A DNA stretch of 64,000 nucleotides from a virus. The translations under genes were made by a program, and so were the position numbers. The stretch lies in IMG/VR virus record IMGVR_UViG_3300045988_180880, positions 128,001 through 192,000 of that record, one strand, 5' to 3'. A model generated the notes under the pieces. That model was not told the DNA's origin. It saw only the letters and a program-made list of their open reading frames with translations, and did no database searches. This document shows positions 18,595 through 37,280 of this stretch, in pieces. Positions within the stretch are counted from its first letter, which is position 1, and each line of letters begins with the position of its first letter.

Positions 18595-19443
18595 TTATAT
18601 GAAATTTAATCTTTTCTGATAAATATTAAATACAAGATTTGATACATTATCTAAATATAATTTCTCTAATGACATTTGTTTAAGTTTATTATATGGAGTA
18701 CCAGATATTTTATTAGAGAATTTATATAATTGTTTTAAATTTATAGTTAATGATCTTTTTAGAAAGAATTCATTAAGTCCAATAAAATTTATAATAATAT
18801 CTATAAATTCTAATACTTTTTTATTATCTCTTATAAAATTTCCAATAATTGTTTTTGAATAGTTTATTGGAATTTCTACCATAGGTAAATTATTAGTTCT
18901 AAAATAGTTTATTATATTATTAGTTATTTTATTAAACAAGTTTATATAAGGAATTGTGTGTTCATCATTACTTCCAAATTCATAATATCTATGAATAATT
19001 ATTCCATAAACACGCTCTACATAGATATCTCTTGCTTTATCATAGATTATTTTTGCTTTATGATATTTAGAATCTATTTCTACGGCTATTCCTAAATAAG
19101 GAAAGAAATAATCTAGTAAAAAGTATCTTGTATTTCTGATACTATCATCCAATCTAACAGAGAAAGAATTTAAAATATTATTCCATAAACTTGTATTCTC
19201 AATTATTATTGGAAATTCCTCAATATAATTATAATATCCTTTAATATTGTAATTATTATCAATAAGATTTTTAAAATTAATAGAATAACTACTCTTATCG
19301 TTTAAAATTGCTTTTTCACGATTAAATACTACATCTATTAATTTATTATTGATTTTTACTTTTCTTGGAACAAAATACATTCCTATATAAGCTGTATAAA
19401 ATTTATCTCTTATTACGTAATTTCTAATCAAATTTAAATCCAT
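18595..19443 (-). CDS. PD-(D/E)XK (DUF559/Vsr-like) homing-endonuclease-like protein, paralog 1
   Basis: YFLLDYFFPYLGIAVEIDSKYHKAKIIYDKARDIYVERVYGIIIHRY parallels the 25279 and 33619 proteins (LDFY.P...lAiE.D...H....D..rd..l...G..v.r). Free-standing with its own promoter. Confidence 0.55.
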   Translation of the reverse strand: MDLNLIRNYVIRDKFYTAYIGMYFVPRKVKINNKLIDVVFNREKAILNDKSSYSINFKNLIDNNYNIKGYYNYIEEFPIIIENTSLWNNILNSFSVRLDDSIRNTRYFLLDYFFPYLGIAVEIDSKYHKAKIIYDKARDIYVERVYGIIIHRYYEFGSNDEHTIPYINLFNKITNNIINYFRTNNLPMVEIPINYSKTIIGNFIRDNKKVLEFIDIIINFIGLNEFFLKRSLTINLKQLYKFSNKISGTPYNKLKQMSLEKLYLDNVSNLVFNIYQKRLNFI

Positions 19444-19856: not shown

Positions 19857-20135
19857 ATGAGCAATAAAAAAGAAATTAAGGTAGTAGTACAAATTAAAAA
19901 AAGATTTGTCAGTGTTAACTCTCTGTATAAAGCAAGAATTATGTATGTAGGAGGTAGACCAGTCCCCAGTACTTATAAAAATCCGAGAGCAGTAGAAATT
20001 GAGAGAGAAATTAGAGATCAACTCAGGGCAATCGATTTTTCTGATTATCTAGAATGGCTCCGAACCACCCCCGGATTCAAACTTCATATTCAATTTATCT
20101 TTAAGAAAAATATAACTAACTCTGATACATCCAAT
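19857..20135 (+). CDS. rusA: RusA-family Holliday junction resolvase, exon 1
   Basis: VNSLYKARIMYVGGRPVPSTYKNPRAVEIEREIRDQLR...KLHIQFIFKKNITNSDTSN follows the RusA N-terminal layout. The ORF stops right after the D-x-x-N motif, where the family continues. Confidence 0.75.
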
Positions 20136-20371
20136 TAAAAAGTAGTTGCCTAAATGATACTATGTTGTTTAGGAAAATCTTATTAAAATGCTGGAAAATT
20201 ACATCACATATATTTTCCGCCCATAATATAAAGGGAGGTTATAAAAAGTGATGGAGAATAAATCAGCAGAAATTATACTAAGATATAATTTTTCAACGAC
20301 TAAATATAAGACTAAGGGGAAGTTCCTTAGATGATATAGTCTATTTTTATATTAAATATATAGATATTCAG
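20136..20371 (+). mobile_element. group I intron (ORF-less, 236 nt) in rusA
   Basis: Classical conserved elements are present: P aaaaTGCTGgaaaa (20189-93), Q aaatCAGCAg (20260-69), R tcaacGACTAaa (20293-20304), S gataTAGTC (20333-41). P pairs with Q (P4) and R pairs with S (P7). Guide sequence AGTA-GTTG (20141-48) pairs with 3' exon TACT (P10) and 5' exon CAAT (P1). The 5' splice site follows U and the intron ends in G. Confidence 0.8.
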
Positions 20372-20974
20372 TACTATAAGAATATAGAGGATATTTGGAC
20401 CAGATTTGTTAAAGAGGATCTGGGTATTGAGAGATATGACGACAATCTTCATGTTGAGATTTCTGCAGTTAAAAGTATTATCCCTAAATCTACTTCAGAA
20501 TATGCATGTTTATACTTAACTGAATCTACTTTTAACGTAAGACTTGATCAAGAAGACAAACCTAAACGTATTTTCTTGGGAGGTACTTGTGGTGGATCGG
20601 CCTGGAGAGATGAATTAATTCCAGAACTTGATAGACTCGGATTTGAATATTTTAATCCCGTTGTACCTGATTGGACTCCTGAATGTATAGAAAAAGAAAA
20701 CATCGAAAAATCCGAACTTTGTAATACACATCTCTATATCATAACCCCGGAGATGAGTGGTGTATATAGTATAGCAGAGATGGTTAATTCAGTTTGGGAA
20801 TGTTTATCAAAGGGATCTGGTTTTGTATGGATTGGAATTCTCGAAAGTGAATCTTGGGAACCTCATCAACTCAAATCACTTCAAGCAACTCTCGATCTAA
20901 TTAACAATATCGCCGATGGAAATAGTAGAATTAGAGCAAAGCTTATAAAAGAATCTAAAGAAATATTAACGTGA
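20372..20974 (+). CDS. rusA: RusA exon 2, continuous in frame with a nucleoside 2-deoxyribosyltransferase-like domain
   Basis: After splicing: ...SDTSN|YYKNIEDIWTRFVKEDLGIERYDDNLHVEISAVKSIIPKSTSEYACLYLTE (compare E. coli DNLQKAAFDAL....WLDDAQVVDYRVVK......LELTITE). With no stop it continues RIFLGGTCGGSAWRDELIPELDRLGFEYFNPVVPDW...LYIITPEMSGVYSIAEM (Nuc_deoxyri_tr2-like). Confidence 0.7.
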   Translation, partial: YYKNIEDIWTRFVKEDLGIERYDDNLHVEISAVKSIIPKSTSEYACLYLTESTFNVRLDQEDKPKRIFLGGTCGGSAWRDELIPELDRLGFEYFNPVVPDWTPECIEKENIEKSELCNTHLYIITPEMSGVYSIAEMVNSVWECLSKGSGFVWIGILESESWEPHQLKSLQATLDLINNIADGNSRIRAKLIKESKEILT

Positions 20975-25278: not shown

Positions 25279-25881
25279 ATGGCAAAAAAGAAAGAAAATA
25301 ATATAAATCACTTAGAGACATTTTACTTCTCAGATATTCCAACTCAACCTTATCCGGTGTATTCAATATCAGAATCTGGAAACTTATACTCTCTGAAAAA
25401 TATAGTATATCCAGGAAAATCAGCTAAAAAATTTACTCGTGCAAAACAATTAAAATGGAGATCTCAACAAGCTAGATTAGTAGATTTCTTAATAAACATA
25501 GATTATTTTTATCCATTAACTGTTTATAGGGAATTTCTAGTACCTATTCAAAATTCTCTTAGACTTCCTGGCATTTCTGGAGGTTTTTTCTTATTGGATT
25601 TTTATTTTTATGAATTATCCTTAGCATTAGAGTTGGATTCTGACTATCATAATCTAGACGCCGATAACCTTAGGGACGAATACTTGGAACAGCTTGGAAT
25701 AGAAGTCTTCAGAATATATAACTTAGAGAAAATTACAACACAGAAGGGTAAGTTTAAAGAATTTATAGCTCTTCTCAAATCTAAAGTTCCTGTTCAAAAT
25801 CCACGTCCCTTTGATTTCCTCGGCGACTTAAGAAAAAGAGAACAGGGAGGAGATAGTTCAGGGTTATGGAAAATCGATTAA
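25279..25881 (+). CDS. PD-(D/E)XK (DUF559/Vsr-like) homing-endonuclease-like protein, paralog 2
   Basis: FFLLDFYFYELSLALELDSDYHNLDADNLRDEYLEQLGIEVFRIY; same core as 18595 and 33619. Confidence 0.55.
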   Translation: MAKKKENNINHLETFYFSDIPTQPYPVYSISESGNLYSLKNIVYPGKSAKKFTRAKQLKWRSQQARLVDFLINIDYFYPLTVYREFLVPIQNSLRLPGISGGFFLLDFYFYELSLALELDSDYHNLDADNLRDEYLEQLGIEVFRIYNLEKITTQKGKFKEFIALLKSKVPVQNPRPFDFLGDLRKREQGGDSSGLWKID

Positions 25882-29663: not shown

Positions 29664-30836
29664 ATGAGTAAAAAATGGTTACATGGAGCTATACCTGCTC
29701 TACTAATTCATGGCTGTATAGGAACTGTTTATTGTTGGTCCTTGTTGTATGATTATATAAAAGAATCTATTACTGGTAATTGTACTTGGGCATTTTCCTT
29801 AGCCATATTTTTCTTAGGGATTTCTGCAGCTTTTTTCGGTCCCTTAGTAGAAAAGAATGTAAAGAAAGCTGCAACTATAAGTTCTATCCTCTTTGGTTCG
29901 GGAATGATCTTATCTGGAGTAGCATGTTATATAAATTCTATGCCACTTCTTTATCTTAGTTATGGAGCAATTATGGGTACTGGAGTTGGAATTGGATATA
30001 TCACTCCAGTAAAAACTCTAATGATGTGGTTCAAGAATAATAAAGGTCTTGCTACTGGACTTGCTATTATGGGATTTGGATTAGCGAAAGTAATAGCAAC
30101 ACCTCTTCTTAATTGGAGTATAGAAAGATGTGGAATATACTGTACTTTCTTCTCTTTTGGGGTTTGGTATACTTTGATTATGTTACTTGCTGCAATACTT
30201 CTTAAAAAACCAATAGAAGAAGGAAAAATAGAGAATACATCAAGACCCAAATTTAAATCACTTAAGGAATGGTTTGATAGGAAAAAACAACTCCTAAATC
30301 TACCAGCAATTACTACTATATGGTTGATTTTTTATTTAAATATCTCTTCTGGATTAGCAATTATAAGTTATGAGAAATATTACTATGAAACAGCTGGAAT
30401 TGGAATAGTTCTAGGATTAGTATTTTCAGCTATTTTTAATTCTCTAGGTCGTTTTGGAGTTGCTTGGTGGTCTGATTATTTTAAAAATCGTGGAAAACTT
30501 TTTGGAATAATCTTAACATTCTCTGTTCTTTCGGGAATTACAGCTTTTATGGCTCCAGGTTTTATTCCAGTAGCTGTACTTTTATGTAATGCTGGGTATG
30601 GGGCAATGTTTTCAATAATGCCTTCTGTTCTAGCTGATAGGTATGGAATGAAAGACGTATCTGAGATTCATGGATTAATACTTAGTGCTTGGGCTTTTGC
30701 TGGTCTTTCTGGAAATCAGTTTGCTAATCTTTTAGTAGGTATTCCAGAGAGTTCATATAAAACATTAATTCTTGGAAGTGTTGGGTTATATTGTATTGCT
30801 CTATCTTTAAGTGCTAAATTGTGGAATAAAGACTAA
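29664..30836 (+). CDS. MFS transporter (oxalate/formate antiporter-like subfamily)
   Basis: 390 aa that is hydrophobic throughout, with roughly 12 predicted helices by eye. The N-terminal GAIPALLIHGCIGTVYCWSLL resembles the OFA-family G..YaWSvf signature. Confidence 0.7.
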   Translation: MSKKWLHGAIPALLIHGCIGTVYCWSLLYDYIKESITGNCTWAFSLAIFFLGISAAFFGPLVEKNVKKAATISSILFGSGMILSGVACYINSMPLLYLSYGAIMGTGVGIGYITPVKTLMMWFKNNKGLATGLAIMGFGLAKVIATPLLNWSIERCGIYCTFFSFGVWYTLIMLLAAILLKKPIEEGKIENTSRPKFKSLKEWFDRKKQLLNLPAITTIWLIFYLNISSGLAIISYEKYYYETAGIGIVLGLVFSAIFNSLGRFGVAWWSDYFKNRGKLFGIILTFSVLSGITAFMAPGFIPVAVLLCNAGYGAMFSIMPSVLADRYGMKDVSEIHGLILSAWAFAGLSGNQFANLLVGIPESSYKTLILGSVGLYCIALSLSAKLWNKD

Positions 30837-33618: not shown

Positions 33619-35106
33619 TTAAGCGGATTCTGTGTTATTTTTATCAATATATCTTTTTATTTCTGTTATTAAGTCTTCTTCGGTTGAAATTATTGGTGCA
33701 AAATAACTATCTAACATTTCTTCAATAGTTGAAAAATGTTTTGTTGAGTCTCTACCTTCTCTTTTTAATATTTTAGGAATTGCAAAATAAATTATATCAA
33801 CTCCATGTTCTTTACACAAATTATACTTTATTAAATCTCGTTGTCTATGATTTTTAAATCCTTTCTCTCCTCCCATATAATTTACAGGAACAAAATGTTG
33901 TACTCCATGACCTTCTATTGCTAAGTTTAATTCTGGAATATAAAAATCTAATTCTAAATTCCTTTTATAAACTAACCAATCTAATGTATGACATCTTGGA
34001 ATAAATTCTATTCCCAAAGATTCTAAAATTTTTCTAATAATAGTTTCTATGGCAGATTCTTTTCGTTCTGGATAAACTAATTTCGTTAAATACCCTTCAT
34101 TACTAGCTTTGTGATACTCCTGTGGAAAATTAATTAAAAATTCAGTAGGACTTTGAATATTGTTATTATCTATAAACTCTTGCATTTCTTCAGAAGTTTT
34201 GTACTTGTCACCCCAATTAGCAACACTTGCTTTATATCTTAATTGCGTTCTAATTCCTAAAGTCTTTGCTCTTCCATAAATTTTTGGATAAGTTCTTTCA
34301 AAAGACTTGGCAGAATATATTTCTGGATGTGTATCAATAAATTCTTGAATATCTTCTACTGTATTAAATTCATCCACCAAACTATAAAGTATTCTATTTG
34401 GATATATTACCTTACTTCTTAATCCTAGTTTAGATAATTTAGCATACCCACTTAAAAATCGATTACTAAAATCTTTTGGATTTTGAATATTATTATCATC
34501 TATAAATTTTTGAGCTGACTCTAAATTATATATAGAATCCCAGTTATCTATATTAGTATGTAATCTATTAGGATATACTACAGACCTAGCAAATTTATTT
34601 TTTAATAATTTTCGATAAATTCCACCAAATCTTTTCTTAAAATCAGTTGGGTTTTGTATTTCATTATCATTAATAAATTTTTGATAGTAATCAACAAATT
34701 CTTCTGGATTTGTTCTTTTTGGAAATATTAATTTAGAAATGATTCTTAAGTTATTTGCTCTATTATATATAATTGGATAGTTAATTTTTAAATCAGAGGA
34801 TGATATAATTTGATTATCTTTAATGAATTTATTAATCTTTTCCAGAGAGTTTATATCTCTGTATAATAAGCTAGTTCTTCTATTCGGATAATTTACTTTA
34901 TCGGCAAAATTCTTTCTAACTAGGCGATTATAAATACTTGGATATCCCTTTTTAAAATCTAATGGCCTAGTAATTTTATTGTTATCTATAAACTGTTGAA
35001 AATCCTCAACAGTATTAAAGTCTTTTAAATCTAAAGAATTACTATTGTTCATTCCCGATTTAGCGACAGACTTTTCTTCGCTTTGAGATTTAGGTAAGTT
35101 ATTCAT
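33619..35106 (-). CDS. PD-(D/E)XK (DUF559-like) homing-endonuclease-like protein, paralog 3, with about five N-terminal ~60-aa repeats
   Basis: C-terminus LELDFYIPELNLAIEGHGVQHF...RQRDLIKYNLCKEHGVDIIYF. The N-terminus repeats the module F..FIDdN.I..P.DF...YP.IY.R.......v.YPNR (e.g. VEDFQQFIDNNKITRPLDFKKGYPSIYNRL...NYPNR; AQKFIDDNNIQNPKDF...IYPNR). Confidence 0.6.
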   Translation of the reverse strand: MNNLPKSQSEEKSVAKSGMNNSNSLDLKDFNTVEDFQQFIDNNKITRPLDFKKGYPSIYNRLVRKNFADKVNYPNRRTSLLYRDINSLEKINKFIKDNQIISSSDLKINYPIIYNRANNLRIISKLIFPKRTNPEEFVDYYQKFINDNEIQNPTDFKKRFGGIYRKLLKNKFARSVVYPNRLHTNIDNWDSIYNLESAQKFIDDNNIQNPKDFSNRFLSGYAKLSKLGLRSKVIYPNRILYSLVDEFNTVEDIQEFIDTHPEIYSAKSFERTYPKIYGRAKTLGIRTQLRYKASVANWGDKYKTSEEMQEFIDNNNIQSPTEFLINFPQEYHKASNEGYLTKLVYPERKESAIETIIRKILESLGIEFIPRCHTLDWLVYKRNLELDFYIPELNLAIEGHGVQHFVPVNYMGGEKGFKNHRQRDLIKYNLCKEHGVDIIYFAIPKILKREGRDSTKHFSTIEEMLDSYFAPIISTEEDLITEIKRYIDKNNTESA

Positions 35107-37058: not shown

Positions 37059-37280
37059 CATTACGTTAACTATATGAAAATATTTTCATATAGATCAGTA
37101 TATGATTTCAAGTTTAAATATTTAAACTTGGCCAGTCTTTATACGTTACACTAAAGAATATTATCTTTAGTTCGGCATTAAATTACTTAACTAAAGCGTA
37201 AGATAGTTAAGGTTATTCGCCGAATTTACTAGCTTATAATCTAAAGAATCACTTCTTTAAACGGCCATTTTATAATCACA
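37059..37280 (-). mobile_element. probable group I intron (ORF-less, ~222 nt) splitting clpC
   Basis: It interrupts the conserved LVAG..(Y/F)RG-E-(F/Y)EERL motif between FRG and YEERL. Minus-sense order of helices fits P3 (tggcc/ggcca), P4 (ttcggc/gccgaa, with P- and Q-like aaattcggcgaa / aatgccgaac), P5, P6, P7 (gtata/tatac), P8 and P9 hairpins. It shares AACG..UAUAAAGACU with the rusA intron R region. The model splices after U and the intron ends in G. Boundaries are good to a few nt only. Confidence 0.65.

Follow-up and report, generated by a model that had tools for sequence, protein, structure and literature searches.

The interrupted gene and its uninterrupted relatives

The DNA analyzed here, hereafter the window, is a stretch of 64,000 nucleotides (nt) from a virus (positions 128,001 to 192,000 of IMG/VR record IMGVR_UViG_3300045988_180880). 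All coordinates are positions in this stretch unless preceded by an L-number, which denotes a related viral or metagenome locus. The window has a guanine-plus-cytosine (GC) content of 29.6%, uses the standard genetic code, and is densely packed with genes, including those for a ClpC-like ATPase, a tRNA nucleotidyltransferase, and HNH endonucleases. At 19857-20974 on the plus strand lies a gene for a RusA-like protein whose reading frame is interrupted by 236 nt, and this interruption is very probably a compact group I intron without an open reading frame (ORF) of its own. The gene consists of the following parts.

19857-20135, plus strand: exon 1, 93 codons of the RusA-like domain ending in N-S-D-T-S-N; its last base, U20135, marks the predicted 5' splice site.
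20136-20371, plus strand: putative group I intron of 236 nt, 26% GC, without an ORF; it follows U and ends in G20371 (omega-G).
20372-20974, plus strand: exon 2, with the rest of the RusA-like domain (approximately 20372-20566, Y-Y-K-N-I-E-D to Y-D-D), then a nucleoside 2-deoxyribosyltransferase-like (NDT-like) domain (PF15891) and the stop codon at 20972-20974.

The ORF at 19857-20138 runs to ...NSDTSN and is closed by TAA at 20136-20138, directly after the junction codon. From 20372, the exon 2 frame translates as YYKNIEDIW... (YYKNIEDIWTRFVKEDLGIERYDD...) and stays open to the stop at 20972-20974; it differs from the frame of exon 1 because 236 is not a multiple of 3. A preliminary description of this DNA, made from the letters alone, had reported an ORF that stops after a D-x-x-N motif and a C-terminal half that resumes 236 nt later in another frame, and this is indeed what lies at the locus. 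Its characterization of the insertion as ORF-less also holds, as no plus-strand ORF of at least 30 amino acids (aa) was found within 20136-20371. The predicted spliced junction, 20135/20372 (...ACAUCCAAU/UACUAUAAG...), would join ...AAU to UAC... and give a product of 293 aa.

Uninterrupted relatives reveal the same gene in one piece. When the spliced N-terminal part was used to query 5.8 billion proteins, homologs of 258 to 279 aa (53 to 76% identity) were found to read ...SDTSN-Y-x-KNIEDIW... straight through the junction, the same junction (SDTSN/YYKNIEDIW) that had been predicted from the window, and a profile search recovered about 60 clusters of uninterrupted homologs of 250 to 280 aa that span it. 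Intron-less alleles, which the preliminary description had suggested looking for, exist in three close relatives from viral and metagenome contigs (L080, L096, and L097; 91 to 93% aa identity). Their DNA reads TCTGATACATCTAAT/TATCTAAAAAAT at the junction (also given as TCTGATACATCTAAT/TATCTAAAA), where the window instead has TCTGATACATCCAAT, 236 nt, and TACTATAAGAAT; the intron-less target sequence in L080 and L096 is TCTGATACATCTAATTATCTAAAAAAT. Relative to these alleles, 20136-20371 is an exact insertion of 236 nt.

At least 20 independent gut assemblies carry the interrupted allele with almost no variation, among them IMG/VR contigs of 250 to 378 kb and a 371,686-bp human-gut scaffold. Among the GenBank phages in INPHARED, neither near-identical DNA nor a protein homolog of the interrupted gene was found, and the only matches to the intron were two weak core similarities, both in Staphylococcus jumbo phages. 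The N-terminus of protein P0019 (MSRGLGDVYKRQ...) was considered as an intron ORF and rejected; it has no match to the window intron, and we read it as a sequencing-adaptor artifact.

Group I core of the insertion

The RNA of the insertion, together with the adjoining exon ends, contains P1 to P10 in canonical order, with a P3/P7 pseudoknot. The individual elements, all on the plus strand, are listed below.

20132-20148: P1 hairpin, CAAU/UA (20132-20137) with UAGUUG (20143-20148), U20135.G20145 at the splice site; from the sequence and the minimum-free-energy fold.
20141-20148: internal guide sequence, AGTAGTTG (RNA AGUAGUUG).
20141-20144: P10 strand AGUA, pairing with UACU of the 3' exon (20372-20375).
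20149-20173: P2 hairpin, 20149-20159 with 20163-20173, from the fold; CCUAAA/UUUAGG becomes CCUAGA/UCUAGG in L002.
20178-20183: P3 5' strand UCUUAU, pairing with AUAAGA (20306-20311) and forming a pseudoknot with P7; five of six pairs changed on both sides.
20189-20194: P4 5' strand UGCUGG (the P element), pairing with UCAGCA (20263-20268).
20202-20253: P5, CAUCAC (20202-20207) with GUGAUG (20248-20253), and P5a, CCGCCC (20217-20222) with GGGAGG (20233-20238); the P5a internal extension hairpin is missing in shorter relatives.
20263-20268: P4 3' strand UCAGCA (the Q element), pairing with UGCUGG.
20270-20291: P6 hairpin, AAAUUAUA (20270-20277) with UAUAAUUU (20284-20291); all six counted pairs covary.
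20298-20302: P7 5' strand GACUA (the R element, preceded by CAAC), pairing with UAGUC (20337-20341); GACUG/CAGUC in L002 and L021.
20306-20311: P3 3' strand AUAAGA, pairing with UCUUAU (20178-20183).
20312-20330: P8 hairpin, CUAAGG (20312-20317) with CCUUAG (20325-20330); all five pairs covary.
20337-20341: P7 3' strand UAGUC (the S element), pairing with GACUA.
20346-20364: P9 hairpin, UUUAUAU (20346-20352) with AUAUAGA (20358-20364); from the single-sequence fold only.

The four classical elements P, Q, R, and S had been named in the preliminary description and occur in that order in the DNA (TGCTGG, 20189-20194; TCAGCA, 20263-20268; GACTA, 20298-20302; TAGTC, 20337-20341), and the complementarity of P to Q and of R to S can be seen in the sequence. 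The same is true of the proposed internal guide, in which GUUG pairs with CAAU (with U20135.G20145) and AGUA with UACU of the 3' exon, and of the terminal G (G20371). P1 and P10 thereby hold the exon ends on neighboring nucleotides of the guide, as is canonical, and the P7 helix (GACUA/UAGUC) would be the guanosine-binding helix.

The Q..R..S pattern occurred once in the window, compared with 0.00 expected occurrences (100 shuffles), and the core pattern matched more than 76 viral loci, many of them on contigs of jumbo phages, with as many as five in 1.5 kb. Thirty related introns, collected by the core search pattern, were aligned with plain MAFFT, and RNAalifold recovered P4, P6, P7, and P8 de novo from this alignment. 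With P3 included as a pseudoknot, 90.2% of the cells were paired, versus 72.1% in shuffles and 32 to 47% when the partners were slid by one to three columns. Double-sided changes numbered 144, with 43 expected, and none of 500 shuffles reached the observed covariation, which sits in P3, P6, and P8, the helices left free by the search pattern. A covariance model (R2), from which the window and its nearest relative had been left out and whose structure was derived automatically, found 20140-20377 at 90.5 bits (E ~6e-14) with no other match in the 64 kb; it matched all split alleles (64 to 105 bits) and none of the intron-less ones. Folding of the single sequence recovered P1, P2, P6, P7, P8, and P9. 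Overall, the group I identity put forward in the preliminary description is supported by a complete core, by covariation in relatives, and by the R2 score. A subgroup IA2 architecture (T4 td type) was ruled out, as GACUA-AAU-AUAAGA-CUAAGG leaves no room for the extra helices P7.1 and P7.2 and no endonuclease ORF is present.

Seven other variants of the intron were found in the same gene (L104, 244 nt; L002, 182 nt; L136, 152 nt; L003, 142 nt; L128, 169 nt; L131, 160 nt; L135, 164 nt), and all eight, the window included, follow U and end in G. At the window's site P10 covaries, with AGUA/UACU in the window, AGAA/UUCU in L002, and AAUA/UAUU in L136. In L003 and the L128 clade, the intron is inserted one codon (3 nt) downstream, and each guide suits its own exon (AACUAU/GUAGUU and CCUU/GAGG). 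That different introns occupy two neighboring sites in the codons of the predicted catalytic motif fits the usual group I pattern of insertion at conserved active-site positions. The 244-nt variant (L104:1480-1723, also in L106 and L107; human-gut contigs) differs in the P5 extension only, with GCCCA...UGGGC in place of CCGCCC...GGGAGG, which suggests that this hairpin is under structural and not sequence constraint.

Instead of being removed from the RNA, an interruption of this kind might be bypassed during translation, with the ribosome hopping or shifting frame (compare T4 gene 60). The stop codon right after the exon 1 junction codon superficially resembles a take-off site. However, a gap of 236 nt is far beyond known bypasses and here holds a complete, covarying group I core, and the gaps of 142 to 244 nt in relatives keep ribozyme features, not hop signals. 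We therefore consider bypassing extremely improbable.

Host protein, splicing, and shorter sister introns

Direct sequence comparison said little about the protein that the joined exons would encode. The Pfam RusA family (PF05866) had no match at E ≤ 1 in the exons or the spliced product, the RusA-like match in PHROG was marginal (E = 0.025), and PDB sequence searches (phmmer and profile) gave no match for the host protein. As this direct evidence failed, the RusA assignment was rescued only by a structural match and transitive profile hits. The AlphaFold (AF2) model of the spliced 293-aa protein had a pLDDT (a per-residue confidence score) of 89.9. For its N-terminal domain (residues ~1 to 155), the top PDB matches in Foldseek were the E. 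coli RusA entries 2H8E and 2H8C (E = 4e-5; probability, 1.00; TM, a structural similarity score, of 0.60 to 0.74 on the target), and the profile of this domain, compared with 1.84 billion representatives, reached about 26 stand-alone proteins of 134 to 160 aa, 19 of which match PF05866. The C-terminal domain resembled NDTs (8QC0, 2A0K, and 7O62) and TIR domains in Foldseek, and residues 158 to 229 of the spliced product gave Pfam's only match, PF15891 (nucleoside 2-deoxyribosyltransferase-like; 35.8 bits, cutoff 30). In most homologs, a C-terminal domain of similar length (corresponding to 20567-20971 of the window, plus strand) has diverged beyond recognition by Pfam.

E. coli RusA has a catalytic acidic triad, D70/D72/D91, plus K76. 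Eight residues of the host protein (Y40, D90, N93, K96, D100, D117, K127, and P157) are invariant in 49 homologs, and the sole register returned by hhalign, not significant alone at E = 0.18, aligns D90, N93, K96, D100, and D117 with D70, N73, K76, D80, and D91 of a RusA reference sequence checked against 1Q8R. The N-terminal domain shares the fold of E. coli RusA (PDB 1Q8R, 2H8C, and 2H8E; PF05866) and has invariant candidate equivalents of these five residues, but the host protein differs from RusA in carrying Ser at the putative D72 equivalent, a 6-residue insertion before the last Asp, and the C-terminal NDT-like fusion. The second acidic position of the D-T-S-N motif had been singled out as an oddity in the preliminary description; Ser is indeed there, but it occupies this position in at least 90% of the homologs, stand-alone members included (consensus, R-D-x-S-N-x-I-K-x-x-E-D), and D-x-S-N is a trait of this whole RusA subfamily. 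The name rusA likewise holds at the level of fold and superfamily (Foldseek and profile) and not as a direct Pfam match, and the NDT-like fusion extending to 20974 had gone unmentioned. From the model, the host protein is best described not as a plain RusA but as a fusion of a RusA-fold, Holliday-junction-resolvase-like domain with an NDT-like one.

Splicing of the intron is indicated by the coding sequence downstream of it. In the exon 2 frame, the last stop codon falls within the intron (20279), and no start codon is available before TTG at 20576; the 68 codons at 20372-20575 are therefore translatable only after splicing. In interrupted alleles, the ratio of nonsynonymous to synonymous substitutions (dN/dS) of these codons was 0.16 to 0.20 at the window site and 0.01 to 0.07 in the second clade; synonymous sites were close to saturation. 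The codons retain the predicted catalytic residues. Such purifying selection on start-less codons argues that splicing must occur, and the indirect evidence that the intron is probably spliced in vivo is strong. These codons also bear on the idea that the insertion is a dead relic and the locus a pseudogene or two genes, one for the 93-aa exon 1 peptide and one for the NDT-like domain from TTG 20576. Public gene callers do give separate ORFs (P0016 and a 132-aa ORF), and the Rfam score, discussed below, is below threshold. However, the 68 start-less codons are under the selection just described and keep the predicted catalytic K, D, and DD residues, all eight variants have an intact ribozyme core, U.G pair, and omega-G, and compensatory changes keep the helices. 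A dead relic is accordingly very unlikely.

Several sister introns are considerably smaller than the copy in the window. They fall into the following two groups.

L003:604-745, L136:1325-1476, L128:1783-1951, L131:1780-1939, and L135:1476-1639: small introns of 142 to 169 nt in the same gene, with P8 cut to 1 to 3 nt.
L033:11272-11441, L021:730-891, L020:1492-1654, and L017:1470-1637: the P8-less form in other genes of these phages.

The L003 intron lacks P2 and P5 in addition to its reduced P8. The P8-less sister introns are presumably still spliced, since their exons are under strong purifying selection (dN/dS of 0.01 to 0.07). In the literature that could be searched, we found neither a description of natural group I introns without P8 nor anything relevant on the smallest ones. 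Tentatively, and with more doubt than confidence, the site in the RusA-like gene may represent a radiation of related introns that were whittled down from the complete 236-nt form to forms of 142 to 169 nt and are still spliced, with P8 dispensable in vivo. If so, the forms of 142 to 169 nt would be among the smallest natural group I introns, and P8, which is normally counted as part of the core, would be dispensable, perhaps replaced by a phage or host protein. Together, the window intron and its shorter sisters offer a natural series of deletions in which to ask how much of the group I core can be dispensed with in vivo.

A number of observations weigh against a group I intron that is removed from the RNA. 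Rfam Intron_gpI (RF00028) had no match in scans of the whole window, and in a 901-nt scan it reached 23.4 bits (E = 0.0013) against a gathering score of 50, missing the curated threshold. The Rfam scan suggested in the preliminary description was therefore passed by half, with a score that fell short and an alignment that was full-length and had P3, P4, P6, P7, P8, and P9 correctly placed. The single-sequence fold of this very AT-rich RNA (26% GC) was moderately better than shuffles only (z = -2.96), and the invariance of P4 and P7 in the alignment is partly by construction, the search pattern having fixed them. Furthermore, the spliced junction 20135/20372 is predicted from DNA, and protein-free self-splicing of the window intron is likewise a prediction. 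The Rfam gathering score, however, reflects a choice by curators, not a biological property of group I introns. In other phages, GC-richer introns that share the core score 62 to 102 bits in Rfam, whereas AT-rich jumbo-phage members remain below the threshold; the core is therefore a genuine group I core, and the Rfam shortfall stems from composition and compactness or from the model.

Many mitochondrial group I introns need proteins. One example of a protein-dependent group I intron is bI3 with Mrs1 (PMC2813881). The window intron could similarly be a group I derivative that is removed in vivo but depends on a phage or host protein, such as a maturase or chaperone-like cofactor, to fold and splice. 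The low GC content and modest thermodynamic signal noted above would suit such a dependence, as would the sister introns of 142 to 169 nt without P2, P5, and/or P8, whose exons are still under strong purifying selection, suggesting a lineage that tolerates loss of structure. Against this, no core helix is missing from the window copy, which also has the P5 extension; self-splicing in vitro is common among small group I introns of bacteria and phages; and no candidate cofactor was identified. Obligatory dependence on a cofactor thus seems rather unlikely. Our preferred interpretation, held with high confidence, is that 20136-20371 is a compact, ORF-less group I intron in the gene for a 293-aa RusA-fold/NDT-like fusion of a Jug-type (jumbo gut) human-gut jumbo phage.

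By established group I chemistry, such an intron would be removed as follows. Once the pre-mRNA has folded, an external guanosine bound in P7 would attack the bond after U20135, which would be held in P1 by the guide GUUG. G20371 would then occupy the guanosine site, P10 (AGUA with UACU) would align the 3' exon, and the free 3'-OH of U20135 would attack after G20371. The joined exons would restore ...SDTSN-YYKNIEDIW... through the catalytic motif D-x-S-N-x-x-K-x-x-x-D. Presence and absence of the intron among alleles of 91 to 93% identity, together with different introns at two sites 3 nt apart, indicate repeated gain or loss. As the intron encodes no endonuclease, its spread must rely on recombination between coinfecting phages or on an endonuclease acting in trans.

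Neighboring genes and relation to known introns

On the minus strand, 414 bp upstream of the interrupted gene, lies a 282-aa ORF (18595-19443) that behaves as a variable presence/absence cassette. It has weak, below-threshold PD-(D/E)XK-type similarity (PvuRts1I-like N, E = 9e-4; DUF559, E = 0.06; motif AVEIDSKYH). Of 20 intron-bearing loci, about 13 have the ORF, which falls into two allele classes (one copy, in L087, is frameshifted). It accompanies none of the three intron-less alleles; in L096, its equivalent is cleanly absent together with the intron. In L090 and L104, its slot holds an unrelated ORF, which in L090 encodes 230 aa without a Pfam match. As a weaker companion idea, for which the evidence is circumstantial, the ORF could encode a free-standing homing nuclease acting in trans on the ORF-less intron; its absence from about one-third of the intron-bearing genomes speaks against such a link. 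The window has another stand-alone gene of PD-(D/E)XK type, a 200-aa ORF at 25279-25881 on the plus strand (DUF559, PF04480; 25.5 bits, above the cutoff), which is a weak paralog of the first (36% over 70 aa).

The window contains another interrupted gene. A ClpC/ClpB-like AAA+ gene on the minus strand is split in its first ATPase domain by 222 nt (37059-37280; flanking ORFs, 38276-37257 and 37061-35352). This insertion follows U and ends in G, and its RNA folds very stably (z = -5.68). Once spliced, the gene would read ...VAGCQFRG/QYEERLDA... and aligns without gaps to ClpC (6EM8; E = 7.5e-82). L137 and L138 (94% identity) lack the insertion (CAGTTTAGAGGT/CAGTATGAAGAG), and other relatives have versions of 225 to 226 nt. 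No match to Rfam (E ≤ 1) or to models R1 and R2 was found for 37059-37280, and the possibility that it is a second copy of the intron family in the RusA-like gene was rejected on these grounds. By eye, it appears to have group I topology with a different core and a compensated P7 (GUAUA/UAUAC). Directly downstream of the ClpC-like gene, a 495-aa ORF (33619-35106, minus strand) has an HNH/homing-endonuclease domain (phrog_559; E = 5e-23). A 390-aa ORF at 29664-30836 on the plus strand has a full-length match to the Major Facilitator Superfamily (PF07690; E = 4e-25), an unusual gene for a phage to carry. Elsewhere, jumbo-phage contigs carry arrays of at least five group I introns within 1.5 to 2 kb (L010:4955-6547, L044:2172-3573, L071, L073, L026, and L031), and Rfam-significant group I introns number eight in L055 and six in L043.

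Jug phages have genomes of 360 to 402 kb, approximately 30% GC, and Bacteroides or Phocaeicola as predicted hosts (Sci Adv 2026, PMC12880540). According to the same paper, 136 of 139 genomes contain group I introns, 2513 in all (~18 per genome; mean length, ~206 nt), which split essential genes and are accompanied by many stand-alone endonuclease genes, and metatranscriptome reads supported splicing of 37 of 76 predicted introns (PMC12880540). In its text and supplements, the intron-position table aside, the split genes named are terL, nrdD, and DNA polymerase, and not a RusA-like gene (PMC12880540). The window resembles these phages in its human-gut origin, in near-identical alleles on contigs of 250 to 378 kb, and in its GC content of about 30% and standard code. 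We found nothing relevant in the literature that pairs RusA with a group I intron. As group I introns are already known to be frequent in the Jug-phage clade, the window intron is a well-supported further case that will not surprise a specialist.

The case has consequences for annotation. Gene callers split the gene into a 93-aa fragment and an orphan ORF starting inside exon 2, and a RusA-fold/NDT-like fusion conserved among jumbo phages of the gut and rumen is thereby hidden. The window intron, being AT-rich and compact, is a clear example of a bona fide group I intron that falls below Rfam's curated threshold. Intron counts in AT-rich phage genomes that use the Rfam gathering score, the sole threshold tested, are thus underestimates, and the ClpC-like intron is missed even at E ≤ 1.

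Cyanophage S-PM2 reportedly combines a psbA intron with a free-standing endonuclease, F-CphI, in "collaborative homing." There, an ORF-less group I intron is said to be joined by a separate gene beside the interrupted one, a role that the nuclease-like ORF 18595-19443 might fill here. The link between intron and ORF is, in contrast to S-PM2, circumstantial in the window, where the similarity of the ORF is weak (E = 9e-4) and many intron-bearing genomes lack it.

The T4 introns in td, nrdB, and nrdD (sunY), of subgroup IA2, likewise lie in phage DNA metabolism genes at codons for conserved catalytic sites, and they share with the window intron the U.G pair at the 5' splice site, the omega-G, and a very similar R and S core. 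The window intron is a further instance of the rule by which group I introns of phages occupy catalytic-site codons of DNA metabolism genes. T4 introns, however, are 600 to 1000 nt long and have homing-endonuclease ORFs and P7.1/P7.2, whereas the window intron has no ORF, 3 nt between P7 and the P3 3' strand, and none between that strand and P8. In size (~200 to 250 nt), lack of an ORF, and minimal P1-P9 architecture, it is similar to the Azoarcus tRNA-Ile and Anabaena tRNA-Leu introns. Those introns are GC-rich and reside in tRNA anticodon loops, whereas the window intron, at 26% GC and with a P5 extension, resides in a protein-coding phage gene.

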